A stretch of 64,000 nt of DNA from an uncultured Candidatus Saccharibacteria bacterium (lineage in GTDB: Bacteria; Patescibacteriota; Minisyncoccia; Phycocordibacterales; UBA9973): NCBI GenBank assembly GCA_964502615.1, contig CAZCXF010000004.1, positions 7,199 to 71,198 of the forward strand. Reading direction: 5' to 3'. The notes below the pieces were generated by a model. The model saw nothing but the letters and a program-made list of their open reading frames with translations. It had not been told where the DNA came from and searched no databases. This document shows positions 3,664 to 43,155 of the stretch, piece after piece (the stretch's first letter is position 1; each line of letters opens with the position of its first letter). Both the position numbers and the translations under genes were made by a program.

Positions 3664-3668
3664 TAATC

Positions 3669-26612: not shown

Positions 26613-26660
26613 CCCCCAGATTAGTTTGTTTATAAAACAGACTGATCTGGGGTTTTTTTA
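26613..26660. terminator. Bidirectional rho-independent terminator (CCCCAGATTAGT…ACTGATCTGGGG + T7) between the convergent DUF218 and gtrA-like genes
   Basis: 12-bp stem with one mismatch, flanked by an A-run and a T-run. Confidence 0.6.
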
Positions 26661-27067
26661 TTGAACACAAACTTCTCGTATACAAAAAAGTTCCAACATG
26701 CAAGAATTGCTAAAGTAAAAACTTTTGAGAGCATTTTGTCGATATGTAATATTTCTACAAAAAAAAGCATTAATAATATATTTATACCGAGATTCACCAT
26801 TGATACTAAGAAAAAAAGAATTGCTTGTTTCTTAGTCTCACTCTTACTAGTATTTTGAAAAGTAATATACTTCTGCAAATAGAACCCCACAAAAACTGAA
26901 AGCACAAAAGATGTTATCGATGCTAATAAATACCAAACATGAAACCAATTTAAAAATATATAAAAAAGTACTAGATTAGATAAAGCTGCTGTTCCTCCAG
27001 CTAGTATAAATAGTATTGCTTTATATATTTTTTTATTTAGCATTGAGCCTATTTTTGTAAAATTCAA
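26630..27067 (-). CDS. GtrA-family membrane protein (polyprenyl-phosphate-sugar flippase-like)
   Basis: 145 aa, 4 TM. 'LFILAGGTAALSNLVLFYIF…YLLASITSFVLSVFVGFYLQKYITF' is typical of GtrA. Confidence 0.75.
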   Translation of the reverse strand: MNFTKIGSMLNKKIYKAILFILAGGTAALSNLVLFYIFLNWFHVWYLLASITSFVLSVFVGFYLQKYITFQNTSKSETKKQAILFFLVSMVNLGINILLMLFFVEILHIDKMLSKVFTLAILACWNFFVYEKFVFNKKTPDQSVL

Positions 27068-27998: not shown

Positions 27999-28004
27999 AG
28001 GTTA

Positions 28005-28745
28005 CTATTTGTGGAAAAGTTTTGTCTTAAAGCCCAGTTTCGCCAAAACATAATAGAATAATACTCCAAAAGTAGCAAATGCGTAAACAATGCTTCTTTT
28101 TATACTTATAGATGTATGTTCTTTCATATATAGTCCTCTGACTGGTACTTCTCCTATTTTGAATTTTTTATATACGATCTGAGCAATTATTTCAAAGCTA
28201 AATAAATAGTCATTAGAAGTATGGGTTAAATCTACACTTTGTATTGACTCTTTGCTATATACTCTTGCTCCAGTGTGGAGCTCGCTAGTACGAACTCCTA
28301 AGATTATCCGATCAATAAAAGTAAGAGATAGGTTGGCTATATATCTTATTAATGGCATCTTATCTTTGAGTGGTTGCCTTAAATCTGTAAATCGTGACCC
28401 AAGCACTAAACCATAACCATTTTTTATTTTTTCAAGTGCGGGTTTTATAAAAGATATATCATACTGACCATCACCGTGTATTTCTACTATATAATCTGCT
28501 CCAAGTTCAAGCGCTTTATTCATCCCGTATTTCATATTACCTCCATAACCAAGCTTAGGATGAGAAAAACATTTGATTCCAAGTTTCTTGGCAACTTCTT
28601 CAGTATTATCTCCAGATTCATCATTTGTAATAAATACTTCATCGAGTACGTCCATTGGAAGCTTTTTTTGTAAATCTTCCAAAAAATTTGCACACTTATA
28701 TGTAAGGATTACTCCTATTACTTTTTTATGATTATTTATTTCCAT
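28005..28745 (-). CDS. Family 2 glycosyltransferase (polyprenyl-phosphate sugar synthase, GtrB/Dpm1-like)
   Basis: 'VIGVILTYKCANFLEDL…ITNDESGDNTEEVAKKLG' GT-A DxD-region motifs. C-terminal TM. Confidence 0.75.
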   Translation of the reverse strand: MEINNHKKVIGVILTYKCANFLEDLQKKLPMDVLDEVFITNDESGDNTEEVAKKLGIKCFSHPKLGYGGNMKYGMNKALELGADYIVEIHGDGQYDISFIKPALEKIKNGYGLVLGSRFTDLRQPLKDKMPLIRYIANLSLTFIDRIILGVRTSELHTGARVYSKESIQSVDLTHTSNDYLFSFEIIAQIVYKKFKIGEVPVRGLYMKEHTSISIKRSIVYAFATFGVLFYYVLAKLGFKTKLFHK

Positions 28746-30792
28746 CTTGTAACTTTGATTCTTCTTCAGCGATAATTTCTTGCCATTTTTTTACATCTGG
28801 ATTATTTGGTTCTATTTCCATCTCTTTTTTTACCATCTCTTTTGTTCTTGCCAACTGTCCAGTTCTAAGATACGCAAGAGCAAGATAACTATAAGATTCC
28901 CAAGTTCCCCAACCATTTTTTATTGCGTTTTCTAAATATATAGCCGCTAAATAAGGATTTGAATTAGCTTGATCAGCTTTTCTTAATTCTGTTCTACCAA
29001 GTACCATCCATACCTTCCCTCGAGTTGGATCCAAAGAAACAACTTTTTGATAGAATTGCATAGACAGATCAACTCTACCTACCAGATTACATATATCTGC
29101 AGCAGCTATCAAATCTTGAGTTTTGCCAGAAGTAGATAGAAAATCTATTTTGCTTAAAATATTATCGTTTGTTATCTGATATTTATCTATAACTTTTTTA
29201 TTTTCTATATTGTTTTTAACCAATATAACTACACTATTATCTAAATATACCCAAACCCAGCTAGGATCGTATATTCTTCTATAAATAAAATCCCGCGCTC
29301 CATCTAGGGCGTCATAATGATAAAAAATAATAGTATTAAAATTGTAACTTTTGTCCAATTGTTTCCAACTATCCTCGTTCCTGATTGCCGGTAAATATAT
29401 ATCACTAAAAAAAGAAGCGGAGTAAGCATCTCCAAAACGATTATCAGTGAAAACTTTTTCTTTTGGATATAGTGTTCCTATTAAATAACTTCCTATATCA
29501 GTATCATTAAATATAGGACCCTTTAGATTATTGGCTTTAAAAAATTTAATTGGATCTTCAGAATATCTGGTCAGGCCTATCCCTTGTTCCATCGAATTCA
29601 TTAATTTAGTCTGACCAGCAAAAATAAGATAAATTATTAGAACAGGAAAGAATCCAAAAAAAGTATATCTTATTAAATTCTTAAAATTTGGCAGTTTTGA
29701 ATATAATTTTTCTTTCAACCAAATAAATGGACCATTTAAATTGCTAACAACTGCAGGTAAGAAAATTATTGCAAACAATGGTAAACCTCTTACTATAATA
29801 AATGGCAAAATAGTTGAACCAATAGAAGCTAAAAAATAGAATATGTAGTTATCTCCCCAAATTGGTAAGTGGTTCTTCTTACGGTAGATAAATGCGATTA
29901 CGAAACTTAAAAACAAAACTAGTATCGAAGGGAAAAATACTGTAGCAGATATTGTATCCCATCCAGGCGCTAAATTATGAGCATTTATTATAGGCGTGAT
30001 CTCTCCACTTGAGATTGGAAAAGTGGCAGAAGTATTGACCATCAATGAGAAAACAACACCCCATAATCCAAATGGGTTTATAAAAGATACCGCTATCAAA
30101 GATACAAATACAATTGAGAGTTTTTTAATTATTTGATTTTTAAAGATTTTCTTTCTATTTAGAATTAAATTTTGAACCAGAAAACCCAAAACCATCATAA
30201 TACCTACCCCAAACAAGAGATGAGTATTAACCCATATAAGCTGTATCGGTATTAACCAAAAAATCCTTTTACTATTGGGATTCTTCTGTAAATGTAGAAG
30301 TAAATAGAGGAATAGAACAACAAATAGAAAACTAAATATCTCTGGCCTGAAAGCAGTACGATTTATAAGTATAAATATTGTGGGTATTGAGAGTAATGCG
30401 GTAAGATAAAAACTTTTATTTTTTTGGGTTAGATAAAAAAGTAATCCAAACATCCCAAGTAGAAGGATGATTTTAAATATAACCATACCACCGAAACCAA
30501 CTGTCAGATAAAGAACATAGGCAAGGACTCCATAGAGCCAGTGATGATTTGCAAAGTGTTGATTGGGTTCTGTATATGAGTAAACATTTTTTGTAAAAAC
30601 ATCATAATTCCCCGCTAACACATCTACTCCGTTTTGCATTTGGCGAGGTAAATCTTGTGCTACTGGTAAACTGATTTTATACACAAGAAAAGATCCATAC
30701 AGTGCTATGAGTAGTGTAAAAATTATTATCTTGAAAGATTTCGAGTTAAGCATCGGAAATTTATTAAGCGATTTATAACTTTCTGGAATCAA
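28732..30792 (-). CDS. Polytopic membrane protein (~12 TM) with C-terminal TPR repeats; probable GT-C-fold glycosyltransferase (TMTC/PMT-like, GtrC-analogous)
   Basis: Many TM helices, then 'FYQKVVSLDPTRGKVWMVLGRTEL…YSYLALAYLRTGQ' TPRs. Operon context with GT2 and GtrA. Confidence 0.45.
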   Translation of the reverse strand: MIPESYKSLNKFPMLNSKSFKIIIFTLLIALYGSFLVYKISLPVAQDLPRQMQNGVDVLAGNYDVFTKNVYSYTEPNQHFANHHWLYGVLAYVLYLTVGFGGMVIFKIILLLGMFGLLFYLTQKNKSFYLTALLSIPTIFILINRTAFRPEIFSFLFVVLFLYLLLHLQKNPNSKRIFWLIPIQLIWVNTHLLFGVGIMMVLGFLVQNLILNRKKIFKNQIIKKLSIVFVSLIAVSFINPFGLWGVVFSLMVNTSATFPISSGEITPIINAHNLAPGWDTISATVFFPSILVLFLSFVIAFIYRKKNHLPIWGDNYIFYFLASIGSTILPFIIVRGLPLFAIIFLPAVVSNLNGPFIWLKEKLYSKLPNFKNLIRYTFFGFFPVLIIYLIFAGQTKLMNSMEQGIGLTRYSEDPIKFFKANNLKGPIFNDTDIGSYLIGTLYPKEKVFTDNRFGDAYSASFFSDIYLPAIRNEDSWKQLDKSYNFNTIIFYHYDALDGARDFIYRRIYDPSWVWVYLDNSVVILVKNNIENKKVIDKYQITNDNILSKIDFLSTSGKTQDLIAAADICNLVGRVDLSMQFYQKVVSLDPTRGKVWMVLGRTELRKADQANSNPYLAAIYLENAIKNGWGTWESYSYLALAYLRTGQLARTKEMVKKEMEIEPNNPDVKKWQEIIAEEESKLQDGNK

Positions 30793-31759
30793 ATTCCTTA
30801 TAGATTACTCCTGAAAGATCTTGGATTATTTTAGTTAGATCATTAAAATCATTACCTCGAGTCATTATACATATGAGATAAGGATTTTTAGGATAGTAGA
30901 CTATGCCACAATCATGTAGTTGTTTTTTGTTGTTAGGTAGATCGGAGCGTTCTCCGAATTTATGCGCAACTTTTAAATTTTTAGGAACTCCTTTTATTAT
31001 GCCATCATTAAAATCAGTATCACTTAATATAGATAAGGCTTTTTCAGATGTCTCTTGTTTATTGAAGAATGAAGAGTGGAAAAGCTGAGTAAATATACCT
31101 GCGTATGATTTAACTGTTACAGTTTGGTCATAGTCATTTTTGGGGTCTACAATACCCAAATCTACATCTGTTTCAAGCAATAAATCTTCTTTAGGACTAG
31201 CAATACTCAAATATTTTAAGAGGCCAAAATACGCACGGTTGTCAGAATACTTTATCATTCTTCTTAAGAGGTCATCTATTGAGTATTCTACGTCTTCCTG
31301 TATTAACGCTTTCGGAGAAAAAAATTGTTCTGAATAGTCCTCTATTTTAGGAAAGGCTATTTTTCTATCTAGGAAATTATCATGCCTATCTTCGTTAATT
31401 CTAAGATATGTTATAAGTAAGGGTAATTTTAGAAGACTAGCGGGAGAAAATTGTATATGTTCATCTATGCCCATTGTTGGGCCATTTATAAGGTCACGAA
31501 AATATATTGATACATTATCGGCTTTTTTTTCTGCAATCTTTGTCGCAATCATATTCTCTAGGTCATTTTTTAATTTTATATAGTTACTTTTATTAACTAC
31601 ATATTTTTGCATACATTTTAGCTTTGGGTTTATATGTTCAAATTTGGAAGAAACACAATTTTGACTATTATTTATTGAACTGCTAGTAAAAAACCCAGCA
31701 AAAAAAATGATGGTAAATAAAAATAACTGTAAGATTATTCTTTTAAAATTCTTACTCAT
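30773..31759 (-). CDS. Secreted class-A beta-lactamase-fold serine hydrolase (PBP/beta-lactamase-like)
   Basis: SxxK 'PASLLK', SDN 'YSDN' and a KxG-like 'HKFGE'. Signal/TM N-terminus. Confidence 0.5.
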   Translation of the reverse strand: MSKNFKRIILQLFLFTIIFFAGFFTSSSINNSQNCVSSKFEHINPKLKCMQKYVVNKSNYIKLKNDLENMIATKIAEKKADNVSIYFRDLINGPTMGIDEHIQFSPASLLKLPLLITYLRINEDRHDNFLDRKIAFPKIEDYSEQFFSPKALIQEDVEYSIDDLLRRMIKYSDNRAYFGLLKYLSIASPKEDLLLETDVDLGIVDPKNDYDQTVTVKSYAGIFTQLFHSSFFNKQETSEKALSILSDTDFNDGIIKGVPKNLKVAHKFGERSDLPNNKKQLHDCGIVYYPKNPYLICIMTRGNDFNDLTKIIQDLSGVIYKEFDSRKL

Positions 31760-31762
31760 AAA

Positions 31763-34700
31763 TTAGGTTGTTGTTGGTGGCGGAGTGTTGTCAGCTGGTG
31801 GTGGGTTACTACCTCCATCTGTTGGTGGTTGCGTATTGTCAGCTGGTGGTGGGTTACTACCTCCATCTGTTGGTGGTTGCGTATTGTCAGCTGGTGGTGG
31901 GTTGTTACTGCCTCCATCTGTTGGTGGCGGATTTGTTGGAACTGGATCAGGAGTAAGGCCTGTTTCCTCTAAGATACTTTCAAATATTTTTGGGTCTTTT
32001 ACTGAAAATACTGTCCATGAGAATCTTATATCTCTATTCGGTGTTTTATTCAAAAGTATTGTGAACCCTGTTTGGTCTTTATCGACTACTATATATCTTA
32101 TATCTTCTCCAAACAAACTCGCTGCGGCACTATCATCAACATTGTCATCTTTTTCAAAAGTCATAGATGCGTTTACAACTGGAGTTGAAATATATGGCTT
32201 ATCAAATACTATTTTTGCTCTCCTGTCCCCTGCTTTTATGAGTGCATAACCAGCAGTATCTTTATTAAACAATGGCGGTAATGAAAATTCCGCTTGCTTG
32301 CTGAAAACAACATCACCATCAAATGTTGTTGTATTGGAGAAGAAGGATAAGCCATTAAATTTCGCTTGACCTGCAAATGAACTATCACCTGTAACTGAGA
32401 GCATATTCATTGTAAATCCATTTACATTTCCATCGGCATCTTTAGTCAAGAAACTTTCGATAACTTTTAGCCTTGTATCGAGGTCTGTTCCACTTGTTGT
32501 AAGCCCTGCGATAGTAGTACTTGCAGTAGTAAGATCTTCTTGCAATTTTTTAATATCTGCTTGAGCAATAGTCAAAGCACTAGATAGTGTATTCATACCC
32601 TCCGCAGTTAGAGTAAAGGCTTGTTGTCCCTCAGCAAGAGAATTAATCTGATCGGTAATTGCTTGTACTCCGGATATATCTCCCAATTTAATATCGTGTG
32701 CTGTGACAGTACCTTTAAATGTTGCATTGCCAAGACTATCAAATACGATAGCTGGATTTACACTATTTGAAGTATTTGTACCATCTTTAGTACCTATTAT
32801 AAACTTACCATTTTCGTTTAGTATTAGATTTATATCATCACCCGTAGCAGATTTGAGAGTATTTGTTGCAAGTACATCCGTCGTAATTTTTGGAGTTATT
32901 ATTTCAACTGCAGCAACTAGCCTATCTGCATATAAGTCAGACATGTCTAGTGTATTTGCATTAGGATCTACCGTTGGACCTGGAGCAGTGCGTGATGCGA
33001 CAACATCGCTTAACAATTTAGCAAGAACTTTTTGACCAAATTCCTGTTTATCAGCAACTGGGGCTTCTGGAGTATTTGGTGTATCACCTGTATTTGGAGT
33101 AAGACCACTTAGTAGAGTAGAGTCTTCAGTTATAGATTCCAACTTCTGACCGTTGTAGTATCCAGGTTGAACGAACAATATAACCACACCCATACGATCT
33201 GGATCAACATTTGGATCATCAACTGCAGGATTCCAACCAGTCAAAGCTTGACCTATAACATGACCTGCTTTTGTAGCCTTCATAGCCCAGCCTGGATGCG
33301 AGGATGTTGTAAGATAATCACCTGGTTTGATAATACCATTCATAGCAGATACTTTTACTGGAACACGTCCAGCCAAGGCAAGGACAACACTCTTTGCTCC
33401 TTGTCTTAGCATTCCTGAACCCATCACCATATCTGGTTGAGTTGATATAACTCCAGCAACATTAGAATCGTATTTTTTACTACTCATTTTTACACCGGCT
33501 TCAAGATCAGGATCAAATGATACGACATCAGCAGCTTCAATAAGTGGATCATTAGTTGCATAAAATTCTCCGAGGTCGGCACCAGATGCTCCACGAATTT
33601 CAATAATACGTACTTCTCCACGGCCTCCGTTACCTCCAGCACCTCCGGTAACTCCAGGACCTCCACCTCCTCCACCACCACCAGGATTTCCTCCGTTACC
33701 TCCAGCACCTCCAACTCCAGCAGCAGCATTGTTCGCTCCTCCTCCACCTCCTCCGTATCCAGCAGTACCAGTAGAGTTTGCATCTGCAGAGTTTGCACCA
33801 TTTCCTCCAGCTCCTGCTGCGGCTCCTCCTCCAGCTCCTCCTCCTCCAGCAACCCAGTTTTGAGTTCCTCCAGATTTTCCTCCAGCTCCTCCTGCTGATG
33901 CAGCGTTGTTTCCAAGAACTTGTCCTCCAGCTCCTCCTCCACCTCCTCCCCATATTGAAGTTCCTCCAGCTCCTCCTGTAACAAGAGCAGCGTTGTTTGA
34001 TCCAGCAGTTGAACCTCCTCCACCTCCTCCGTATATTGCAGAACCTCCGGCACCAGCGGCAGTGTTTGTAGCTGTACCTCCTCCACCTCCTCCGAATTGA
34101 CCTCCGGATGCGTTAGCAGCACCTCCGTTTGGACCTCCTCCAGTACCTCCAGTTGCAGATGGAGAGTTTGAACCGACAGCGCCAGTACCTCCTCCACCTC
34201 CTCCACCAGACCCAGCAGCAGCTATACCTCCCTTACCTCCTCTACCTCCACCATAAGCTTCAATAAATACAGTTGATGTAGCAGAACAAGCCGCATTTAC
34301 AGAGACACATGCAGTATCTCCAGCAGTACCGTTTGTAGCACTTGCACCTCCAGTCACAGCTGCAGGAGCTTGAACGTTTACAGCAGATGAAGTAAAGTTT
34401 GCACCATCAAATGTTTTTGTAACATATGCTCCTCCTCCACCTCCTGAACCTCCCATACGAGGGTTTGCTACTGCAGCTGCCTGTCCTCCACCTCCTGAAC
34501 CTCCTCCTCCGATTGCTTCAATAATCAAAGATTTAACACCTGCTTTTTTGGTGTAAGTAGTGTTTGAAGTAAATACGTTGTAGTTTACATCACCACAAGT
34601 TGCGACAGTGATAGTACCGTTTGTATCCATATTCATACAACCGTTTGCTGATGGTTTGTCAGGAAGAGTGATTGTATAGTCTGTAGTTATTGAAGCTGGT

Positions 34701-37700
34701 GCACTTATACTAACTGAATTTGTTCCGTTACCTGTATTTGTTTCAAACATTCTTACACCAACATCCCAACCAGCACCGATTGATATCGCACTTTCCGTTG
34801 CAGATGTACCTGTTATATTTGCAATTGTTAGACCATTGAATAAATCAGTAGAGCTTACTCCTGTAGATATTGGTGTGAATGCAAGATTTATACCAGATAT
34901 TGTTCCACCAGATGTCATGTCTCCTGCTTCCCAAGCAATAGAAAGTGCTTCTGTACTAGCTGTAACCATTCCAGTTGTTCCACCGGTAAGATCTATTTTC
35001 ATTGCATCGGCTGTTGGAATAGTTCCATTTGTTGTATTTTCAATTGTAAATTGAGTATCTGCAGCATCTCCATATAGAAGGTTTAATCTGTCAGAAGCAG
35101 TTGTTTTATTTATCACGCCTGCTGATGAAGTAAATGATCCTGCTCCACCTCCAGTAGCATCAGTAGCACAACTCCAGACTGAAGTTGATTCAGTCCATTT
35201 TAATATTTCTCCGTCTGCACAACCTTGAAGCAAACCTATTGCTGTAGTATTTCCTACTTCAAGACCAGAACCGTTAGATGTAGAACCAGTACCGTCTGAA
35301 CTTGTCAGAGTAAGGGCTGTACTTGCATCGATTGTTCCTGCTGCAGTCGTAAGAGTTATATTACTTGAACCAGCTTGAATAGTACCTTGGGTATCCAAGT
35401 TACCACTAGTTGCAACTGTAAAGTTTGTAAAGCCAATCAAATTTGTACCAGCCGTTGTTCCCCCGATAACTGTATCCCAACCAGAACCAACTCTAATAGC
35501 AGTTTCTGTCGCAGTTCCAGCAGTTATACCTCCTATGTCCAATCCTATTTGAGTTCCAGCAGAACCAGAAGAAGCTCCGTTTATCAGTATTCCTGTAGAT
35601 GAAACAACAGAAGTAGAAGCAGTATTATTTACTCTTAATCCATTCCAAGTACAGGTCGCTCCACCAGTACACGCAGTAAATGTTGGTGCACCCACATTTA
35701 TAGCATTGAGTGTTTTTACCCCTGAAGTTGCATTGGTTGTGTTGAAATTTGAATCAATATTAATACCATTTGTAGTTGAAGTAAGTGCACCTCCTGTTGC
35801 CGAACCATTACTTACTGAAAGGTTAACAAGGCTTCCTGTCTGACCATTTGCATGACTATATGTTGCACCAGAGACATTGATTGCCCCTCCGGTGGTAAGT
35901 GTTCCATTAGAAATTCCGACATCGAGAGCATACCCAGTAGTGAGGTTGTTAGCAGAGATTGATTGCACTTTACCTGAACTTGCACTGTTTGCAGTTATAT
36001 TGAATATTCCTGTACCAGTGTAAACACCAGTATTTGTAATTCCAAGGTTTGTACCTGTAGTTGCATTAGAATCTATATCAAAGAGTGCATCTGGAGTAGT
36101 ATCAGCTATACCGACATTTCCAGAAGTATCAATTGTAAGAGGAACTATTCCACCAAATGGATAATAAATAAAGAATTTACTAGCAAGACTGAGGGCTGTT
36201 TCATTTGTATTTCCCACTCCAATGCTCCACTCCTGTCCACCCGCGATTGCCATTTGAGTATATCCATTTGTTGCGGTAGATGTATTTAGAATTTTAGTAA
36301 CAGGAGTATAAGCAGCACCATCATTTGTGAAATATCCAGCAAAATTATTATTACCTCCAGTAGCCTGACCATATACTCCGTAATTGTCTGCTCCACCACT
36401 TGATGCGTTACCATATACACCGATATTTACCGGAGTTCCGGCGGTTCTCGTATGACTATTGTCGAAATATCCAGCGTAAGTCGTAATTGTAGTCCCAACG
36501 TTACCAGCCAAAGTTACACTTAATCCTTTTTGTCCGTTTGCAGCAGTAGTTCCGTTTGAAGAAAGTGATAGCAATGATCCTGATGTAAGCCCATTCCCTG
36601 TAATACTTGCAAGCGTACCAGTTGTTGCAGAGTTAGCAGTAAGATTAAATATCCCAGTTCCTGTATAGACACCAGTGTTCGTGATGCCGAGATCAGCACC
36701 GGTTGTATTTGTGGTGTTGAGTGTTACAACATCATTTGCTGTTGTTGCTGAGAGTGTTGTACCAGAACGTGACCAATATCCGATAGCACCAGATGTAGGA
36801 GCAGTTGTAGTGAGAGTTCCGTTACCACCTGAAGTATATAGTGGACCGTTAGAGGTTAGAGCTGAGAATTGAATTGTTCCAGAAGATATAATACCGGCTG
36901 CTGAAGCAATAGCCCCAGAAGAGTTGACTTGGAATTCAGATCCTGGGCCTACAGTAAATAATGAGTTCGGACTAATATCACCTCCAATATTTAAATTATT
37001 ACTTGTGTCTATATATATAGATGTTCCTGCATTAGAACCTATCTGTACTGGATAATTACCTGATGAACCAAACATTGATCCGCCTCCATCAGCATAAATA
37101 TATGCTTCGGCATTTGTACTTGCATCACGAACTGAAATTGAAGAGGAACCATTATTTTGGAAAATTGCTAATTCAGTACTTGCTATGTCTGATACATCAT
37201 TACCTGCACCGACATGGAGTTTATATTGAGGAGCTGTATTAGCTATACCCACATTCCCCGCATTAAATATAGCCGCATAATTATTATCCGCACCTGATGC
37301 TGTTGCGTATAGACCAATCGCAGTTGATGCTCCCGCAGTATCTCCTGTCGCTGCGAAATATCCACCGTAAGTATTTACTGTTCCTGCAGCTGTTCGGCCT
37401 GTGTTGTCTGCCGTGTTGTATGAACCATATAAAGTATAAGTACCAGTTGCAGTATCTGCACCTGTTTTTGAGGCGTTGTTATAGATACCATATGCTGTCT
37501 GACTTACTGATGCCCCTGCAACTACAGCAGAAGATGTCCAGAAATTTTGAAGTCCGTATGATGCAGTGAGTGCACCTGTTCCTGTTTGTGTGGTTGAGAA
37601 TCGTGCTCCAGGTACAAAATCACTGCTAGATGTTGCGTTTAGTCTTAACACACCACTTGAACTTGAAGCTGTCGCATTTGTAAATGTAAACCCGCTAGTA

Positions 37701-40700
37701 CTTGAAGTTGTAAATTCAGCATTTCCTGCAACAGTAAGAGCGCTTGTTGCACTAGTAGTTTGTATGCCAACATTTCCTGCTTTATCAATTATAAATGGAC
37801 TACTATCTGTATATGTACCATCATCATTCACTCGAAATGCTAGAGCATTGGTACCAGTTTGCGCAGTTGTAACATTAAGTGTTGTACCCTCTCCACCTGC
37901 AGCACCAAGTAGTCCGAGTTTAAGCGCAGTACCATCGACATCAACATCAGCATTGTTGTATTCTATCTTTGCAAGGTCTCCTGTCCAAGAAGTTCCCGGT
38001 GCACCTGTTGCAGAAATATTAAGAAGTCCACCAGTTGTAAATGCTGTTGAAGTCGAAGTGAGATTAAATAATGTACCAGTCGTCAAAGCATTTGCTGTCC
38101 AGGTAAATGGATTCTGTGTTGAAGCAGTAGACCAATCCCATTGTTGTGCATAGTTTGTGTTGTCGATTGTATTTGTACCAGTTGCAAGAGTAATGGTATT
38201 GAGTGAAGTACTTCCTGCTCCTCCACAAGCACCAGCTGAAATGAGTCCAACGTTATCAGTCTTTATACACTGAGTTCCTCCACCTCCATAAAACGGTGCA
38301 GTAATTTGTCCATTATAATCAATTGCAAACTTAGAAGTTGCATTATTTTTAATATTCAGAAGATTCCCTCCTGTTTGTGCACCTGATGTATCAAATTTAT
38401 ATGCATCACCGGAACCAGAAGCAGTGATACTTGCAGAGAGAGTGTTGTAACCAATAGTAAGATTATTTGAAGCTATAGAATATGAACTTGTTCCGTAAAC
38501 ACCTCCAGCCACAGCTAGATTCTTGTTTATAATAACAATGTCTGCGGAACTATATACTATGTTTGCATCAGAAACACCGATTGTTGACGTATCATTTCTA
38601 GCAATATTTATTCCACCTGGACCTGCAGATATTAAACCATTTGATGATGCAATTTTTGCTTTCACAACACCACTTGCAGTTGAGTAAAAATCTCCAGCTT
38701 GATCTGTATCCCCTGTCACTTGAAGTTTGTAGGCACCAAGATCAGAAGTTGAACCGATTTGAAGTTCACCAGCAGTATTAAATCTTCCTCCTTCGTTAGG
38801 GCTGTCGAAGGAATCATCGTAATAAAAATACAGAGCTCCAGAATTACCACCGCCAATACCTGCAAAAGTATTATTTCCTCCGTTAAGGAACAATATACTA
38901 TCTGTACTAACTCGAGCACCCCCAGATCCACCACCATTTGCATTTAGACGTATTACTCCACCAGCTATATTTATATTACTTGAAGAAGCCCAGACAGAGT
39001 CACCACCTGATGAGTACAATGATCCAATTGTCCCTGTACCGAAATCTGTTTGACCTGTGATTTTAGTATTTCCAGTAACTTGCAGTGCATATGTACCAAG
39101 ATCAGTCATTGAACCAATTTGGAGTTCGCCAGCAGAGTTTATTCTCATTCTCTCTCCTGCAGTTCCGGTCGAGAATGCAAGGGTATTTGCTCCAGGACTC
39201 CAAATACCTGTATCTAAATCTCCGTTAAATGTATATGAGGGTGCAGTAGTTCCTCCAAGCTGGTTAGCAATAACTCCTGTTTGGGTAATATATAAACCAG
39301 AACCATTCTGTAATGTAAGATTAGTAGTGTCTAGAGTAACTGGAATTGTAAATAATACATGATTTGCACCTGAAATGGTAGCTCCGGCACTTGCATTTCC
39401 TGTAATACTTAAATATATAGGATCATTGCGAAGTAAAATAGAAACACCGCCTGTTTCAGTCCCTGCTACTTTGAAATAACTTCGCGTGCCATCACTAACA
39501 TCAAGTATTCCTGTTGGAGTTGCTGTACCAATTCCTACCCTCCCTCCCATAAACGCTGCCGCATATGTTGTATCTGCAGTGTTGGCGGTTGTAGCGTCGA
39601 CATAAAGACCGGTGACAGTGTTAGCAAGTGAGCCAGCATCGGTAAATGAAATATGTTGGCCATAGAGAGTGTCTGCATTTGTTGCTTGGTTGTTTGTGAG
39701 AGCAAGTTTTTCTCCATAATATGTCTCTGATGCTGCAGAGCCAGAAACTGTCACAGTGTTTAAGAATCCAGATGAACCAGTTGTAGTAATAGCGGAACTA
39801 GTGAGAGCAAGTGGTGCACCAGTTGCTGCGTTAGTAGAGATAGTTACAATATCGTTAGCGGTGGCAGGAGAAAGTGTGGTGCCACTTCTTGACCAGTATC
39901 CGATCGCGCCAGAGGTTGGGGCAGTAGATGTAAGATTTTTTGAGCCGTCTGTATAAACAGCAGAAGAAGCAGTGAGACCAGAGACATTTAATGAATCGAC
40001 AATTGCGTTGCCTGTGACTTGAAGCTTAAATGTTCCAAGGTCAGAGGTTGATCCGATTTGTACTTCTCCTGTCTGGAAAATATGTCTCGTAATACTACTG
40101 TTACCATACGCAGCAGTATTAGAACCAAAGCCGGTGGTGTTATAGCCGAGTACTATTTCGTTGGTATCCCCATCTGCTAGAGCTTTGGTGCTTGCTCCTA
40201 AATAAACAGATGTGTTAGAGGTCTGGTTTGAAGTTGAGCCATCTGCAATAACTCCTCCGGCAAAATACCCTAGAGCGGCATTATAGTAACCTGAGGTGTT
40301 TCTTTCGAGAGCATAGATTCCAAAGGCTGAGTTGGAATAACCTGTGTCGTTAAGTTTGAGAGCATACATTCCAAAAGCTGAGTTGGAATAACCTGTGGTA
40401 TTGGTGGTGAGAGCTTGGACTCCGAAACCAGAATTATAATAGCCGGTAGTATCGGAATTGAGCACTTGGACTCCGAAACCTGAATTATTTGAGGCCTGAT
40501 ATGTTGCTGTCGCTGTGCTTCCCATTGTCAAATTACCGGCACTTAATCCTACAAAAGTATTACTACCGTTTGGTCTTGCGCCACCTCCAGTTGGATGCCT
40601 GTAGTTATGAATAAAAGGTGTTCCATCTTTATAGATAATTCCATTTGAAGCATTAGTGTCTGTTTGTTGATCTGCTATTCTAAAATTACCTGTGATTTCT

Positions 40701-43093
40701 AGTTGAGCTTGTGGTGTTGCTGTACCAATCCCCACATTACCTTGATCGAAAATCGCAGCGTAATTACCACCAGTTGCACCAGATGCAGTTGAGTAAAGAC
40801 CGACGTTGACTGCACTTGCACCAGTTCGTGTATTTGAAAAATATCCACCATATGTAGTTTGTGCACCAGTAAGCGCACCAGTGAGTGCAACATTTAATCC
40901 TTTTTGCCCGGTAGTTGCGGCGGCACTCGATGAAGTTAGGGAGAGAATATTTCCAGAAGTTGCTGAATTAGCAGTTATCAATCCAGCGTTGCCTGTTGTC
41001 GCTCCAGATGTAGTTAAAAAATCACCGTTGTTATCAACTTGAAATTGAGAAGAGGAACCTACAGAGAATAAATTAGTTGGGCTTACTGTACCTACACCAA
41101 CACTACCTCCACCAGAAGGAACTACGATTGCATAGTTATTATCAGCTCCTGTTGCTGTTGCGTACAAACCATAAGCTGTTCCTGCAGGGGCAGTTGCTGA
41201 AAAATATCCTCCGTAAACATTTGGCCCACCTCCTGTTCCTGTGGCTGTTCCGTAAATAGCATATTGAGTATTGTTACTTGCAGAAGTACTACTATACAAA
41301 CCGTAATTTATAGCACCAGTACCGTCATGACCATTTGAAATGTAAGCTCCGTAACTTGAAACAGAACTAGTAGCATTAGTTCCGGTAAGAGCAATATTTA
41401 ACCCTTTCTGATTTGTAGCAGCTGCTGTTCCACTTGAAGAAATATTTAAAAGTGACCCAGATGTTAGTGTTGAAGAAGCTAAATACATACCAGTTCCAGA
41501 AGTGAGTGAATTAAAGTTTCCAGCAAATGCAGAAGTTGTTGTCGTACCTGTTGTCACTCCAGAGTTGATAGTAAATGTTCCTGCACCTGCGAGAGTATTT
41601 GTTAATGATTGACCAGATGTTGGAGCAAATGTTATAGCGCCAGTGTCGAGGAATGATGCAATGGCTGTACCGTTGTCTTGGATTAATAAATCTCCAGTTG
41701 ATGCCAGATTAAATTTTATATCAGCAGTACCATTTGAAGTTACTCGTAGTGGTGAGGCAGTAGAAGTTGCGAGTGTTGAGATATCTACTAGTGATTGGTT
41801 TCCAGCACCATTTGCAGCTGCAGTGGTTTCACCAAAAGTAAATGCTGTTTTTGCTGCTGTAGTTAGTGCCCAGTTCCAAACAATTGCATTGTCACCGTTA
41901 CCAATTGTTGCAGTTGTGTTTGCTGCGGCGACATTGTTAAGCGGAACTGTGAAAGATGATGATGCAATCTTCTCGACTACTCCAGTAGAAGTGTTACGTG
42001 TTAGAACTTCATATCCACCAGCAGACGCTGAAGGTGAGGTTGCTAGAGTTAGTATTCCAGTACTTCCAATTCGAAGCTTTTCACTCACAGCTGTACCTCC
42101 ACTTTGTGTTAGAAAAATCAAGTCACCACTTTCTGAGCCTGCTGTGTTTCCAAGATTAGTAATCTGAATACTTGCTCTTGCTATTTGCCTTGTACCATTG
42201 GCAGCTGAGAATAGCAAACCATTCGAATTTGAATTAGTCATGAAAATACCACTGTTACCAGCTGTATTGCCTCCGTTACCGAAGTAGAAAGGATATGAAA
42301 GATCAGAGCCAGCATTAGTGAGTCTGAGTAGAACAGTAGTATTACCTTGGTTATTTATTTGATTGGTAACAGTAAGGACACCGTTGGCTTGAATATAGTT
42401 TGAGAACGTCTTATCTCCAGCGAATGTCTGTGTTCCTGTTGTAACTACACCGCCAAACGATGCAGATGCTGGTTCAAGATTAAGAACTGAGCCTGTAATT
42501 GTAGCGCCGTTTGCATTCGGAGATGATCCAATTGCAGAAAGTGTTGTTACTCCTGTTGCAGTTGATCCTTCAATTATGTTTCCAGTTGAATCTACTTGCA
42601 AAGCAAAAGTCGGAGTACCAGTAAACGTACCAGCTCCGTATTGTGCGAGTTTAAACTTACCACTGTTCAAAAATCTTCCGACTTCTGTCGCACCGTTGTT
42701 TCCAGTTTTGAAAATAATATCTGCACCAGTTGTACCAACTCCAGAAGTTGATTTGAAAGTTAGTGTATCTGTAGTACCAGTACCTCCGATCAAAGTTGAT
42801 CCACCAGATAGACCGATATTGTTTGCAATGAGTGTAGCGTTAACAGTTGGACCAGTGTAAGTAACAAGTGAACCTGCGTCGTTGAACTGAAGGTGTCCGT
42901 CACCAATCTCAGCCCATGGGTGACCAGGGTTTGGAGTAGTAGCTGTTACGATACCAACGATTGAGAAAGCGAGGAATAGGAAAAGTACTGAGTAGACAGC
43001 ATAGTGAAGAGAAAATCTAGGGTGAATTTTCTTCGCAATTTTTGTTAGAAATCGTATGTATTTTTGATTGTTGTTTTCGGACATAAAATACAA
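31763..43093 (-). CDS. Giant (3776 aa) N-terminally anchored Thr/Gly/Ser/Ala/Asn-rich beta-repeat surface protein, with tail-fibre-like G-N-V-G-I-G-T-x-x-P motifs, a poly-Gly region, a conserved globular domain and a C-terminal Pro-rich repeat
   Basis: Single uninterrupted 11.3 kb ORF. N-terminal TM 'VYSVLFLFLAFSIVGIVTA'. Recurring 'GNVGIGTATPQAQLEI' / 'GRVGIGTATPTGILDV' motifs and internal duplications ('TAPTSGAIGYWSRSGTTLS' twice). Gly-rich GGGGxGG block. C-terminal 'PPTDGGSNPPPADNTQ' x3. Confidence 0.7.
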   Translation of the reverse strand: MYFMSENNNQKYIRFLTKIAKKIHPRFSLHYAVYSVLFLFLAFSIVGIVTATTPNPGHPWAEIGDGHLQFNDAGSLVTYTGPTVNATLIANNIGLSGGSTLIGGTGTTDTLTFKSTSGVGTTGADIIFKTGNNGATEVGRFLNSGKFKLAQYGAGTFTGTPTFALQVDSTGNIIEGSTATGVTTLSAIGSSPNANGATITGSVLNLEPASASFGGVVTTGTQTFAGDKTFSNYIQANGVLTVTNQINNQGNTTVLLRLTNAGSDLSYPFYFGNGGNTAGNSGIFMTNSNSNGLLFSAANGTRQIARASIQITNLGNTAGSESGDLIFLTQSGGTAVSEKLRIGSTGILTLATSPSASAGGYEVLTRNTSTGVVEKIASSSFTVPLNNVAAANTTATIGNGDNAIVWNWALTTAAKTAFTFGETTAAANGAGNQSLVDISTLATSTASPLRVTSNGTADIKFNLASTGDLLIQDNGTAIASFLDTGAITFAPTSGQSLTNTLAGAGTFTINSGVTTGTTTTSAFAGNFNSLTSGTGMYLASSTLTSGSLLNISSSGTAAATNQKGLNIALTGTNATSSVSSYGAYISNGHDGTGAINYGLYSSTSASNNTQYAIYGTATGTGGGPNVYGGYFSATAPAGTAYGLYATATGADNNYAIVVPSGGGSVGVGTVSPTNLFSVGSSSQFQVDNNGDFLTTSGATTGNAGLITANSATSGNILSLTSSSAAATTGQKGLNVALTGALTGAQTTYGGYFSNTRTGASAVNVGLYSTASGATGGNYAAIFDQGNVGIGTATPQAQLEITGNFRIADQQTDTNASNGIIYKDGTPFIHNYRHPTGGGARPNGSNTFVGLSAGNLTMGSTATATYQASNNSGFGVQVLNSDTTGYYNSGFGVQALTTNTTGYSNSAFGMYALKLNDTGYSNSAFGIYALERNTSGYYNAALGYFAGGVIADGSTSNQTSNTSVYLGASTKALADGDTNEIVLGYNTTGFGSNTAAYGNSSITRHIFQTGEVQIGSTSDLGTFKLQVTGNAIVDSLNVSGLTASSAVYTDGSKNLTSTAPTSGAIGYWSRSGTTLSPATANDIVTISTNAATGAPLALTSSAITTTGSSGFLNTVTVSGSAASETYYGEKLALTNNQATNADTLYGQHISFTDAGSLANTVTGLYVDATTANTADTTYAAAFMGGRVGIGTATPTGILDVSDGTRSYFKVAGTETGGVSILLRNDPIYLSITGNASAGATISGANHVLFTIPVTLDTTNLTLQNGSGLYITQTGVIANQLGGTTAPSYTFNGDLDTGIWSPGANTLAFSTGTAGERMRINSAGELQIGSMTDLGTYALQVTGNTKITGQTDFGTGTIGSLYSSGGDSVWASSSNINIAGGVIRLNANGGGSGGARVSTDSILFLNGGNNTFAGIGGGNSGALYFYYDDSFDSPNEGGRFNTAGELQIGSTSDLGAYKLQVTGDTDQAGDFYSTASGVVKAKIASSNGLISAGPGGINIARNDTSTIGVSDANIVYSSADIVIINKNLAVAGGVYGTSSYSIASNNLTIGYNTLSASITASGSGDAYKFDTSGAQTGGNLLNIKNNATSKFAIDYNGQITAPFYGGGGTQCIKTDNVGLISAGACGGAGSTSLNTITLATGTNTIDNTNYAQQWDWSTASTQNPFTWTANALTTGTLFNLTSTSTAFTTGGLLNISATGAPGTSWTGDLAKIEYNNADVDVDGTALKLGLLGAAGGEGTTLNVTTAQTGTNALAFRVNDDGTYTDSSPFIIDKAGNVGIQTTSATSALTVAGNAEFTTSSTSGFTFTNATASSSSGVLRLNATSSSDFVPGARFSTTQTGTGALTASYGLQNFWTSSAVVAGASVSQTAYGIYNNASKTGADTATGTYTLYGSYNTADNTGRTAAGTVNTYGGYFAATGDTAGASTAIGLYATASGADNNYAAIFNAGNVGIANTAPQYKLHVGAGNDVSDIASTELAIFQNNGSSSISVRDASTNAEAYIYADGGGSMFGSSGNYPVQIGSNAGTSIYIDTSNNLNIGGDISPNSLFTVGPGSEFQVNSSGAIASAAGIISSGTIQFSALTSNGPLYTSGGNGTLTTTAPTSGAIGYWSRSGTTLSATTANDVVTLNTTNTTGADLGITNTGVYTGTGIFNLTANSATTGTLASITGNGLTSGSLLSLSSNGTTAANGQKGLSVTLAGNVGTTITTYAGYFDNSHTRTAGTPVNIGVYGNASSGGADNYGVYGQATGGNNNFAGYFTNDGAAYTPVTKILNTSTATNGYTQMAIAGGQEWSIGVGNTNETALSLASKFFIYYPFGGIVPLTIDTSGNVGIADTTPDALFDIDSNATTGTNLGITNTGVYTGTGIFNITANSASSGKVQSISANNLTTGYALDVGISNGTLTTGGAINVSGATYSHANGQTGSLVNLSVSNGSATGGALTSTTNGINIDSNFNTTNATSGVKTLNAINVGAPTFTACTGGATCTWNGLRVNNTASTSVVSSTGILINGASSGSAGTQIGLDIGGITAGTATETAIRVGSGWDTVIGGTTAGTNLIGFTNFTVATSGNLDTQGTIQAGSSNITLTTAAGTIDASTALTLTSSDGTGSTSNGSGLEVGNTTAIGLLQGCADGEILKWTESTSVWSCATDATGGGAGSFTSSAGVINKTTASDRLNLLYGDAADTQFTIENTTNGTIPTADAMKIDLTGGTTGMVTASTEALSIAWEAGDMTSGGTISGINLAFTPISTGVSSTDLFNGLTIANITGTSATESAISIGAGWDVGVRMFETNTGNGTNSVSISAPASITTDYTITLPDKPSANGCMNMDTNGTITVATCGDVNYNVFTSNTTYTKKAGVKSLIIEAIGGGGSGGGGQAAAVANPRMGGSGGGGGAYVTKTFDGANFTSSAVNVQAPAAVTGGASATNGTAGDTACVSVNAACSATSTVFIEAYGGGRGGKGGIAAAGSGGGGGGGTGAVGSNSPSATGGTGGGPNGGAANASGGQFGGGGGGTATNTAAGAGGSAIYGGGGGGSTAGSNNAALVTGGAGGTSIWGGGGGGAGGQVLGNNAASAGGAGGKSGGTQNWVAGGGGAGGGAAAGAGGNGANSADANSTGTAGYGGGGGGANNAAAGVGGAGGNGGNPGGGGGGGGPGVTGGAGGNGGRGEVRIIEIRGASGADLGEFYATNDPLIEAADVVSFDPDLEAGVKMSSKKYDSNVAGVISTQPDMVMGSGMLRQGAKSVVLALAGRVPVKVSAMNGIIKPGDYLTTSSHPGWAMKATKAGHVIGQALTGWNPAVDDPNVDPDRMGVVILFVQPGYYNGQKLESITEDSTLLSGLTPNTGDTPNTPEAPVADKQEFGQKVLAKLLSDVVASRTAPGPTVDPNANTLDMSDLYADRLVAAVEIITPKITTDVLATNTLKSATGDDINLILNENGKFIIGTKDGTNTSNSVNPAIVFDSLGNATFKGTVTAHDIKLGDISGVQAITDQINSLAEGQQAFTLTAEGMNTLSSALTIAQADIKKLQEDLTTASTTIAGLTTSGTDLDTRLKVIESFLTKDADGNVNGFTMNMLSVTGDSSFAGQAKFNGLSFFSNTTTFDGDVVFSKQAEFSLPPLFNKDTAGYALIKAGDRRAKIVFDKPYISTPVVNASMTFEKDDNVDDSAAASLFGEDIRYIVVDKDQTGFTILLNKTPNRDIRFSWTVFSVKDPKIFESILEETGLTPDPVPTNPPPTDGGSNNPPPADNTQPPTDGGSNPPPADNTQPPTDGGSNPPPADNTPPPTTT
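31787..31930. repeat. 48-bp perfect tandem DNA repeat (x3) at the 3' end of the giant gene, encoding PPTDGGSNPPPADNTQ
   Basis: 'TTGTCAGCTGGTGGTGGGTTACTACCTCCATCTGTTGGTGGTTGCGTA' repeated head-to-tail. Confidence 0.8.
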
Positions 43094-43155
43094 CTATATT
43101 ATATCATAGTTGTATAGCGAAAACACTCGAAAAACTGTTAGATTTATTGATTTTT

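Follow-up and report, generated by a model that had tools for sequence, protein, structure and literature searches.

The stretch analysed here, referred to as the window, comprises 64,000 nucleotides of contig CAZCXF010000004.1 from an uncultured Candidatus Saccharibacteria bacterium. On its minus strand a single open reading frame (ORF) encodes a giant protein, in which an N-terminal hydrophobic helix is followed by a long fibre body, a Gly-rich domain, a module of the phage phi29 gp12 type (module A), a probable coiled coil, a domain of predicted H-type-lectin fold (module C), and a Pro-rich tail (Table 1). A gene for a serine hydrolase related to β-lactamases and penicillin-binding proteins (PBPs) lies directly behind it. 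The giant protein is best read as a native surface fibre of a Patescibacteria cell built from phage tail-fibre parts, which is probably an episymbiont counterpart of the MAT (mosaic adhesive trimer) fibres by which Bdellovibrio recognises its prey.

Table 1. Features of the giant gene, its product, and the genes that follow it, in window coordinates.
Feature	Residues	Position	Strand	Remark
Extended -10-like element, TGnTATAAT		43098..43106	minus	ends 13 nt before the ATG; read from the sequence
Whole ORF		31763..43093	minus	3776 codons from TTG; stop 31763-31765
Probable start ATG, codon 4		43084-43082	minus	would give 3773 residues
N-terminal hydrophobic helix, AVYSVLFLFLAFSIVGIVTA	32-51	42941..43000	minus	hydropathy scan; after a Lys/Arg-rich 30-residue N-region
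Conserved N-terminal domain	52-174	42572..42940	minus	opens with TPNPGHPW right after the helix
Phage receptor-binding-protein-type block, ...LEPASASFGGVVTTGTQTFAGDKTF...	175-240	42374..42571	minus	
Fibre body	241-2835	34589..42373	minus	Thr/Gly/Ser/Ala/Asn-rich; diverged internal duplications
51-bp tandem repeat		40287..40439	minus	17-residue unit GYSNSAFGxYALxxNxT
Gly-rich domain	2836-3168	33590..34588	minus	starts FTSNTTYTKKAGVKSLIIEAIGGGGSGGGG, ends GGRGEVRIIEIRG
Module A, gp12/Peptidase_G2-like	3169-3325	33119..33589	minus	157 residues; β-tulip-type fold predicted
GADLGEFY, boundary motif of module A	3171-3178	33560..33583	minus	
Linker	3326-3474			
Probable coiled coil	3475-3560	32414..32671	minus	hydrophobic periodicity
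Module C, H-type-lectin-fold domain	3604-3702	31988..32284	minus	candidate glycan-binding head
Pro-rich C-terminal tail	3714-3776	31766..31954	minus	encoded by the 48-bp repeat
Class-A β-lactamase/PBP-like serine hydrolase, exported type		30773..31759	minus	Pfam Beta-lactamase2, E = 9e-29
Protein with ~10 transmembrane helices and C-terminal tetratricopeptide repeats (TPRs)		28732-30792	minus	
GT2 polyprenyl-phosphate-sugar-synthase-like gene		28005-28745	minus	
NAD-dependent sugar epimerase/dehydratase gene		27033-27998	minus	
GtrA-like gene		26630-27067	minus	

Reading frame and composition of the giant gene

The first-pass annotation of this DNA, made from the letters alone, had described a single ORF filling 18% of the window. 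The measured share is 17.7%, and from base composition alone the chance of 3776 stop-free codons is ~1e-106; the ORF is confirmed as real and intact. The richness in Thr, Gly, Ser, Ala, and Asn that had been noted also holds (Gly 15.5%, Thr 14.2%, Ala 11.5%, Ser 9.9%, and Asn 8.1%), and a motif scan located in the protein every motif that the annotation had quoted. GNVGIGTATPQAQLEI lies at residue 785, GRVGIGTATPTGILDV at residue 1184, and TAPTSGAIGYWSRSGTTLS at residues 1057 and 2097; YGGYF occurs three times and ADNNYA twice, and GEVRIIEIRG and LALAGRVPVKV are found at residues 3159 and 3238, respectively. The claimed internal duplications of more than 30 residues are present and span 64-98 residues at 46-56% amino acid identity. 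Identity between the duplicates at the DNA level reaches 82% at most, and the duplications are old. The 48-bp tandem repeat said to encode the Pro-rich tail runs from 31772 to 31927 (3.2 copies, 92% matches), and the 51-bp repeat of Table 1 was absent from the annotation's list.

The GC content of the gene (0.41-0.43) exceeds that of its surroundings (~0.33). The excess stems from the Gly, Ala, Thr, Ser, and Pro content, which raises GC at codon position 2 (GC2) to 0.56, while GC at position 3 (GC3), at 0.205, equals that of the neighbouring genes; the gene is therefore native and not a recent import, and the horizontal transfer hinted at by the high GC was rejected on this ground. Given the position of the TGnTATAAT element, the TTG codon would fall at or before the start of the transcript, which makes the ATG at codon 4 the likelier, and probably the true, start. 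The same spacing suggests an mRNA with a very short leader or none (near-leaderless or leaderless). A consensus promoter scan did not report the extended -10 element and found no good -35 element there. The exact giant protein had no entry in the public gene index.

A module of the phi29 gp12 type

Module A is kept in 80 of the 120 homologues listed, with the consensus sGADLAExY..D...GDVV..D....V.KS...YD...GVIST.PG....ALAGRVPVKVS.ENG.I..GDYLT.SS.PGVAMKATKAG.VIGQAL. Over this module, Pfam PF11962 (Peptidase_G2; MEROPS G2) scores 26.9 bits in homologue P0082 (cutoff 25) and 19.7 bits, below the cutoff, in P0079; against the whole giant protein or a 271-residue segment of it, PF11962 gave no match even at E-values up to 10. 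When searched against the PDB, the module A profile matched residues 686-749 of gp12, the pre-neck appendage or tail spike of phage phi29 (6qz9_A, E = 0.005), and the released gp12 fragment (3gqh_A, E = 0.013). The AlphaFold2 model of the module has a mean predicted local distance difference test score (pLDDT) of 86.3, and Foldseek places it closest in the PDB to gp12 (3suc and 3gqh_A; template modelling (TM) scores 0.50/0.56, probability 1.0), with phage cement or decoration proteins and the phi29 head-fibre base also matching. In BFVD the best match has E = 8e-12 and a root-mean-square deviation (rmsd) of 2.2 Å; names of the "tail fiber" kind are found among the matches, and proteins named "Preneck appendage protein" match at E = 2.8e-10.

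The relationship extends to the cleavage site of gp12. The family motif ADLAE aligns with gp12 S/DFAEYFE, in which the slash marks the cut, and the PDB entry 3gqh_A begins at that Asp; in the giant protein, the counterparts of gp12 D692 and E695, at the S691/D692 site, are D3173 and E3176. In alignment A1 the Glu is invariant and the Asp at least 90% conserved; all 160 related loci have D-x-[AG]-E, as do 269 of 300 domain copies. The C-terminal domain of gp12 and the equivalent D4 domain of Dpo31 help the trimer to assemble and are then cut at an Asp residue (PMC3357383, PMC13317679, PMC4690869). By analogy with gp12, a self-cleavage site is predicted at A3172/D3173, and the strict conservation of D-x-x-E argues for retained cleavage.

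Module A thus shares with gp12 the predicted fold (PDB 3GQH/3SUC), the Asp with a Glu three residues on at its N-terminal edge, and a position directly behind a β-structured fibre or spike. It differs in that the gp12 domain forms the last 163 residues of its protein and is discarded, whereas 451 residues come after module A. The sequence similarity between the two is marginal (the profile E-value of 0.005), and gp12 is made in the cytoplasm without a signal peptide, whereas the giant protein has an N-terminal helix. By fold and homology, module A is best described as a gp12/Peptidase_G2-type domain with a presumptive auto-chaperone role. This fits the annotation's guess that the conserved module is of the intramolecular-chaperone type. 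Two parts of that guess fell away: Peptidase_S74 (PF13884), the family it had suggested, is ruled out for module A, as there is no Pfam match and no SDxxxK motif anywhere in the protein, and the module is not terminal, since the probable coiled coil and the H-type-lectin-fold domain come after it. Proteins homologous to the shaft or to the N-terminal motif do contain Peptidase_S74. For Peptidase_G2, no paper was found in the literature searched.

The family is large. At E-values up to 1e-3 the module A profile recovers 28,980 representative clusters (24,091 at 1e-10), the clusters being defined at 50% identity, and member proteins reach 5,766 residues; in the 64-kb window no second copy of module A or of module C was found. 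The top-scoring members (P0287-P0434, together with P0044, P0080, P0083, and P0092) carry two or three tandem copies 35-120 residues apart. Some module A proteins, namely P0098 and ORFs of loci L015 and L055, begin with a MerR-type helix-turn-helix; P0098 matches Pfam MerR at 1.1e-18, and the L055 protein has a hydrophobic segment behind it, near residue 94. In such an architecture a giant fibre outside the cell would be coupled to a DNA-binding domain in the cytoplasm.

The Gly-rich domain, probable coiled coil, and candidate lectin-fold head

The Gly-rich block in front of module A contains up to 40% Gly over ~330 residues. A block of this kind had been described, as a low-complexity region of ~300 residues; the block exists, but it is probably more than a spacer, since it occupies the position of the Gly_rich_2 domain of homologues. 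In five of these (P0106, P0115, P0119, P0100, and P0042), Pfam Gly_rich_2 (PF21722) scores 26.6-47 bits against a cutoff of 24.3, and its end lies between a 2-residue overlap with module A and a 7-residue gap from it; in P0027 it stops ~80 residues ahead of the module. The giant protein and its homologues share the opening FTS..TYTK.AGVKSLIIEAIGGGGSGGGG and the closing GEVRIIEIRG-ASGADL. The giant protein itself has no Pfam match to Gly_rich_2, and a home-made Gly_rich_2 hidden Markov model (HMM) finds one domain at residues 2840-3055 with an independent E-value of 0.007, a score confounded by composition. Because composition swamps the HMM score, the assignment relies on the position and the edge motifs shared with homologues, and by these the block resembles a Gly_rich_2 domain that has expanded. 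In about a fifth of the cellular loci (16/77), Gly makes up more than 25% of the sequence upstream of module A.

Behind the linker, residues 3475-3560 show a hydrophobic periodicity that peaks at 3.5 residues (1.77, vs at most 0.53 at other periods) and weak matches to the coiled-coil families SpiroCoCo_C and NPV_P10; many coiled-coil families match the equivalent stretch of P0044. Module C follows. Its AlphaFold2 model (pLDDT 92.9) is a β-sandwich of the H-lectin kind, for which Foldseek returns as best matches the Helix aspersa and Helix pomatia agglutinins, SLL-2, and discoidin II (top entries 4q56, 2ccv, 3wmp, and 2vme; probability 0.95-1.0, TM score at most 0.53 on the target). The Pam1 tailspike's receptor-binding domain and the tip of the R2 pyocin fibre were also found. 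Domain-by-domain structure prediction, as the first-pass annotation had proposed it, covers modules A and C, with gp12-type and H-lectin folds as the outcome. Pfam H_lectin (PF09458) matches 14 of 34 aligned family members (best E = 6.3e-6), with P0032 at 26.3 bits for a cutoff of 24; it does not match the giant protein itself, and the module C profile reaches Helix pomatia agglutinin among PDB sequences at E = 1.7 only. H-type lectins and the Pam1 and R2 pyocin tips are trimeric glycan-binding heads, which module C resembles in predicted fold. It differs from H-type lectins in sequence (14-19% identity) and in the Pro-rich repeat that comes after it. From its modelled fold, module C is a candidate glycan-binding head. 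Several homologues carry, in place of the Pro-rich tail, an SH3_3 domain, which is commonly associated with peptidoglycan binding.

The shaft and the MAT fibres of Bdellovibrio

Six motifs of the capping-loop type, G-x-V-G-[IV]-x-T-x-x-P-x-x-x-L, are spaced along the fibre body at residues 663, 785, 1184, 1773, 1946, and 2325. A shaft profile was made from a ~310-residue module (residues 520-830), two internal copies of it, and homologues. Searched against the PDB, it matched structures of Bdellovibrio MAT fibres: 8ond (Bd2133) at E = 2.2e-11, 8ojn at 8.1e-9, 8ol4 at 2.4e-4, and 8oml at 0.01. Homologues of the 520-830 module terminate in Peptidase_S74, Peptidase_G2, or K1-lyase_C domains, all of which serve phage fibres as chaperones or tips at the C-terminus. 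In the alignment the family motif GNVGIGTxxPxxxLxV falls onto SGNLGLGTAAPTSALHV, VGINTAAPLQKLHV, and GNVGIGATAPTAKLEV of Bd2133, motif on motif, and these Bd2133 segments are the capping loops of the trimeric β-helix of MAT fibres (PMC10769870). Together with the phage identity of residues 175-240 described below, the profile match to the MAT β-helix crystal structures supports the annotation's description of the protein as tail-fibre-like and β-helical.

MAT fibres are trimeric, stand on the surface of the predator, and are mosaic by experiment; they end in S74 chaperone-protease or adhesive folds, and one of them binds prey glycans (PMC10769870). Compared with Bd2133, Bd3182, and Bd2439 (Caulton et al. 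2024, PMC10769870; PDB 8ond, 8ojn, 8ol4, and 8oml), the giant protein has the same general plan: an N-terminal signal sequence, as judged from hydropathy; a long, predicted β-helical shaft with repeated capping loops (G-N-V-G-I-G-T-x-x-P-x-x-x-L, within the general form V-G-G/N-pi-x-x-P-x-x-x-L); a mosaic build, conserved at the proximal end and exchangeable in its distal modules; a terminus formed by a chaperone-protease of the phage type or by an adhesive fold, for example a lectin; and a carrier that lives on other bacteria. It differs in size (3.8 thousand residues vs ~0.6-1.9 thousand), in having a chaperone-like module of the gp12/Peptidase_G2 type where that of MAT fibres is S74, in the internal position of this module ahead of the coiled coil and H-lectin head, in its Gly_rich_2-like domain, and in its host, a Patescibacteria-type cell that we assume to have a single membrane. 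Patescibacteria are not among the MAT-bearing lineages listed (PMC10769870), and no link between MAT-type fibres and Patescibacteria was found in the literature searched. Bd3182 is ~550 Å long for ~780 residues (PMC10769870); by rough extrapolation from this ratio, the shaft would measure about 200 nm, which is about the diameter of the cell. By analogy with the gp12-type D4 domain, the H-type lectins, and the MAT shaft, all trimeric, and with a probable coiled coil of its own, the giant protein would form a homotrimer at the cell surface.

The N-terminus and probable export

The N-terminal anchor named in the first-pass annotation corresponds to a 20-residue hydrophobic helix behind a basic 30-residue N-region; in the hydropathy scan it is the sole hydrophobic segment of the whole protein. 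Hydropathy, on which all signal and anchor calls rest here, was applied to the first 150 residues of complete ORFs, and a hydrophobic segment was found in 31 of 40 complete cellular homologues vs 0 of 48 complete viral homologues. We infer that residues 32-51 are a signal-anchor or a long signal peptide. The same N-terminus is present in P0121, P0134, and locus L020, which also have in common with the giant protein the domain behind the helix; the PNPGH motif and the sequence after it are kept at 83% identity in P0121, at 49% in P0134, and in L020. This domain (residues 52-174) had no family match in the search of Pfam, PHROGs, and NCBIfam.

The block at residues 175-240 recurs at 55-89% identity in more than 100 short phage-like proteins, many of which carry BppL_N, Peptidase_S74, or collagen domains, and is overlapped by the local matches of up to 144 of the homologues listed. 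Weak direct matches of the giant protein point the same way (Pfam BppL_N, E = 0.03; PDB 3d8m, a lactococcal phage receptor-binding protein, E = 0.002); a phmmer search of the whole protein against the PDB gave this weak receptor-binding-protein match and nothing else.

Many other fibre homologues have a different N-terminal domain behind the signal, with INFQGK..N.DG.NV.DG.Y.F.F.IYD...LWTE or GVPEIL.HQGRLLD..GNLLGG (loci L012, L014, L018, L022, L030, L038, L042, L049, L056, L073, and others). It is common to Patescibacteria metagenome-assembled genomes (MAGs) and to MAGs labelled Bdellovibrionales, and might be the conserved N-terminal domain of MAT fibres.

Cellular and viral homologues

The cellular set comprised 80 loci, mostly from Patescibacteria MAGs, kept from 577 confirmed in species-representative genomes, and the viral set comprised 80 IMG/VR loci (L081-L160). 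Homologues of the C-terminal 627 residues are nearly all hypothetical proteins from Patescibacteria MAGs, and the homologues as a whole come overwhelmingly from such MAGs, in line with the affiliation to the candidate phyla radiation (CPR) that had been proposed. The two sets differ in what stands behind module A: 1-19 residues, and in a few cases ~105, in the viral loci vs 110-600 in the cellular ones. Viral ORFs range from fewer than 200 residues (truncated by the contig) to more than 3,400, and cellular ORFs reach 3,920 residues or more. Because of this contrast in extension and hydrophobic segment, the cellular proteins are read as exported fibres and not as parts of virions.

The nearest viral relatives are fibres of uncultured phages (with the motifs "...YADLAExY...GRVPVKV...GKALE"; BFVD A0A6J5T215 and others), which are 35-48% identical to module A over ~115 residues. 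They are like the giant protein in their module (rmsd 2.2 Å) and in that their ORFs can be very long, beyond 3,400 residues. They are unlike it in that their domain is compact and terminal, without a coiled-coil or lectin extension, and in that none of the 48 complete ORFs has the N-terminal hydrophobic helix.

Gene neighbourhood

The β-lactamase-like gene begins 4 nt past the stop of the giant gene, and the two are probably co-transcribed. Its product has an N-terminal hydrophobic segment, S108xxK, and S172DN, and lacks KTG. In six genomes (L001, L003, L020, L029, L048, and L069) a homologue of it is found directly 3' of the fibre gene; the TPR-membrane gene follows in L001, L029, and L048, with the GT2 gene next in L001. 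In the window, the four genes behind the β-lactamase-like gene (26630..30792) overlap or abut. The GT2, GtrA-like, and polytopic TPR proteins look like a Gtr-type three-component set for extracytoplasmic glycosylation, and it is a speculation that this set modifies the Thr/Ser-rich shaft.

The upstream flank holds pheT, a small ORF, pheS, an AddA-like helicase-nuclease, and an ABC exporter, and the downstream flank holds envelope and sugar genes. The order pheS-pheT-fibre-bla is found again in L020. No phage genes were found among the ten genes within ~6 kb on either side or among ten more within 12 kb, and Rfam matched one tRNA and nothing else. The nearest syntenic loci are in Saccharibacteria MAGs, with neighbouring proteins at ~50% identity; the flanking genes, the taxonomy of the homologues, and this synteny identify the organism as a Patescibacteria-type bacterium.

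The small ORF between pheS and pheT (45189-45584, minus strand) encodes 131 residues, for which two hydrophobic helices are predicted and no family matched; it is also present in the sister-strain contig L161. Beside the envelope block, at 23735-25791 on the plus strand, lie a sugar C-methyltransferase gene (Methyltransf_14/13) and an RmlD-like reductase gene, a pair that points to synthesis of a modified deoxy-sugar.

Contiguity and strain variation

Independent cover of the gene comes from one public contig for the 5' 2.1 kb and from six others for the 3' flank. All six 3' contigs (L162-L167), from different samples, stop inside the 48-bp repeat, at window positions 31783-31890; five of them are 100% identical to the downstream genes and one is 99.4% identical, and five are Logan short-read assemblies. 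The 48-bp repeat thus breaks assemblies systematically. Because the other contigs end early, the copy number of this repeat and the middle 9 kb of the gene stand on the present assembly alone.

The contig that covers the 5' end, L161 (Logan SRR31615969), matches pheS, pheT, and the start of the giant gene at 100% identity. All 60 of its 60 mismatches fall inside the fibre gene, packed into the last 1.27 kb (window 40950-42200). After residue 736 it diverges: a different cassette of 133 residues replaces residues 737-1034, a stretch that contains the block of 51-bp/17-residue repeats, and the two sequences rejoin over residues 1035-1083. The difference could reflect recombination or diversifying selection, or could arise from a chimeric short-read contig. 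A fibre gene that is a hot spot of variation, as this comparison suggests, fits a role in host recognition. A diversity-generating retroelement is unlikely to lie behind the differences between the strains, as the mismatches are scattered across 1.3 kb and one entire cassette is swapped; no search for a reverse transcriptase was made.

Proposed assembly and function of the fibre

The explanation that we favour, and consider reasonably likely, is that the product of the giant gene is a native fibre of the Patescibacteria cell surface, exported through Sec, probably homotrimeric, and made of phage tail-fibre parts, the episymbiont counterpart of the MAT fibres of Bdellovibrio. The helix at residues 32-51 would direct the chain to the Sec translocon, with the N-terminus probably kept in or at the membrane as a putative anchor. 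The C-terminal unit of gp12-like module and coiled coil would emerge last and align three chains in register; as in phage fibres, it would then nucleate folding of the Gly-rich domain and of the ~2,600-residue β-helix from the distal end toward the cell. Beyond the coiled coil, the head of predicted H-type-lectin fold would bind a glycan of the host envelope. In the least certain step, for which we see about even chances, D3173-x-x-E3176 would still drive self-cleavage at A3172/D3173, and the 604-residue C-terminal piece would be released or held non-covalently. The adjacent 10-transmembrane/TPR, GT2, and GtrA genes may, speculatively, serve to add sugars to the Thr/Ser-rich shaft once it is outside the cell. 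Display at the surface and trimerisation, as well as self-cleavage and host binding, are all proposed here from the likeness to phage and MAT fibres.

Several observations weigh against this explanation. The whole protein had nothing significant in Pfam, PHROGs, or NCBIfam, and neither did ten overlapping segments in Pfam, so that the links to MAT fibres, Peptidase_G2, H_lectin, and Gly_rich_2 are made through profiles, homologues, or predicted folds. The shaft-profile matches to MAT structures have a high composition bias, and a single shaft segment gave no match in a phmmer search of the PDB. The PDB entries of MAT fibres contain only the tips, and the comparison covers these; the domain that defines MAT fibres, conserved, β-rich, and ~130 residues long, stands directly behind their signal peptide, where the giant protein has its own conserved domain (TPNPGHPW...). 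Cleavage of phi29 gp12 is ATP-dependent, and ATP is unavailable outside the cell. Cleavage as in phi29 would moreover sever the lectin head from the anchored shaft and so weaken the case for a lectin tip. In many relatives the module stands two or three times in tandem, an odd arrangement for a terminal chaperone used once; with the conserved downstream domains, these multi-copy relatives may mean that the module is structural or that the cut pieces stay joined. Lastly, the hydrophobic helix could be a cleaved signal peptide (V-T-A/T-T), in which case retention would pass to the Pro-rich, lectin, or SH3b end at the C-terminus and the polarity of the fibre would be reversed.

The position of the predicted cut also admits another role for the C-terminal 604 residues. 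As a disposable assembly unit, the G2-like module, coiled coil, lectin fold, and Pro-rich tail would dock on the cell's own wall through the lectin, Pro-rich, or SH3b part, trimerise the chains, and be cut off at A3172/D3173, leaving the Gly-rich domain as the mature tip in contact with the host. Such a unit would account for the D-x-[AG]-E motif (160/160 loci, 269/300 copies) and its alignment with the gp12 cleavage site, for viral homologues that end with the module, for gp12 and Dpo31, which release theirs, and for homologues that terminate in SH3_3; Gly_rich_2 stands at the place of a mature tip, directly before the module, in five homologues, and ~80 residues upstream in P0027. Set against this, the H-lectin fold is a receptor-binding tip in phage and pyocin fibres, where use as a throw-away anchor would be unusual, and a conserved extension of 450 residues is costly for a chaperone; we regard the disposable unit as a possibility, but not a probable one. 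The linkage to PBP/β-lactamase-like and envelope glycosylation genes, the Pro-rich tail or SH3_3 domain at the C-terminus of related proteins, and the Thr/Ser-rich shaft, as in glycosylated envelope proteins, would suit an envelope protein with a structural or self-directed role (for example an S-layer-like coat, a sheath, a cell-cell aggregation fibre, or a wall-spanning scaffold), which attaches by its lectin and Pro-rich end to glycans of its own cell and is no host adhesin. We think this unlikely, as MAT and phage fibres, its nearest characterised relatives, serve in recognition, the hypervariability between strains and the replaced cassette suit target recognition more than a housekeeping coat, and the window holds one copy only.

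Every recognisable module has phage relatives, and viral ORFs with the same terminal module can pass 3,400 residues, as would be expected if the gene belonged to a prophage, tailocin, or other virion lying in the genome. That origin is very improbable in view of the flanking genes scanned, none of which is a phage gene; the site between pheT and envelope genes, in an order repeated in L020; the N-terminal hydrophobic helix, found in 0 of 48 viral homologues; the host-like codon usage; and the internal module, unlike that of viral proteins. Slighter still is the chance that collapsed or chimeric repeats, or a decaying pseudogene, have produced the ORF. Six public contigs end in the 48-bp repeat, another diverges after residue 736, and the middle 9 kb has the backing of this assembly alone; however, a stop-free run of 3776 codons (P ~1e-106), repeats too old for collapse to be likely (at most 82% nucleotide and 46-56% amino acid identity), a domain order found again in complete homologues of 3,200 to at least 3,900 residues from other genomes, and a uniform, host-like GC3 all speak for a genuine gene.

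Implications for Patescibacteria and the module A family

Host recognition and attachment by the ultrasmall Patescibacteria are largely unexplained, apart from type IV pili and a small number of unnamed adhesins (PMC10633639, PMC11665869). The favoured explanation, a surface fibre made of phage tail-fibre parts, ties a giant CPR protein to two systems understood by experiment, the chaperone-bearing phage tail fibre and the Bdellovibrio MAT fibre. It also yields parts that can be tested: a predicted cleavage site, a lectin-fold head, a conserved PBP/β-lactamase-like partner, and, in a subset of genomes, a glycosylation set. All parts of the giant protein are of known kinds, and it is their combination that was not found described in the literature searched, namely a Patescibacteria-type protein of 3.8 thousand residues, with a module of the G2 and not the S74 type, placed internally before a coiled coil and lectin head, and with a PBP-like partner gene. 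Pfam barely detects the very large module A family, whose members occur in phages and in cellular fibres, and the module A profile could flag candidate host-recognition genes in metagenomes.

A bolder reading, which we hold to be doubtful, is that Patescibacteria have converted a phage tail-fibre assembly cassette into a cell-anchored organelle for host capture. This would be a Sec-exported trimeric fibre of ~200 nm, with a shaft glycosylated outside the cell by the linked GT-C/TPR, GT2, and GtrA genes and specificity cassettes swapped between strains, in which an internalised, self-cleaving module of the gp12 type serves as a non-covalent breakaway joint. Comparable to SEA and GAIN domains, the joint would connect the anchored shaft to the host-bound coiled-coil and lectin head. 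If this were true, the module family (~29,000 clusters at 50% identity) would mark a large unrecognised class of adhesins of episymbionts and predators.

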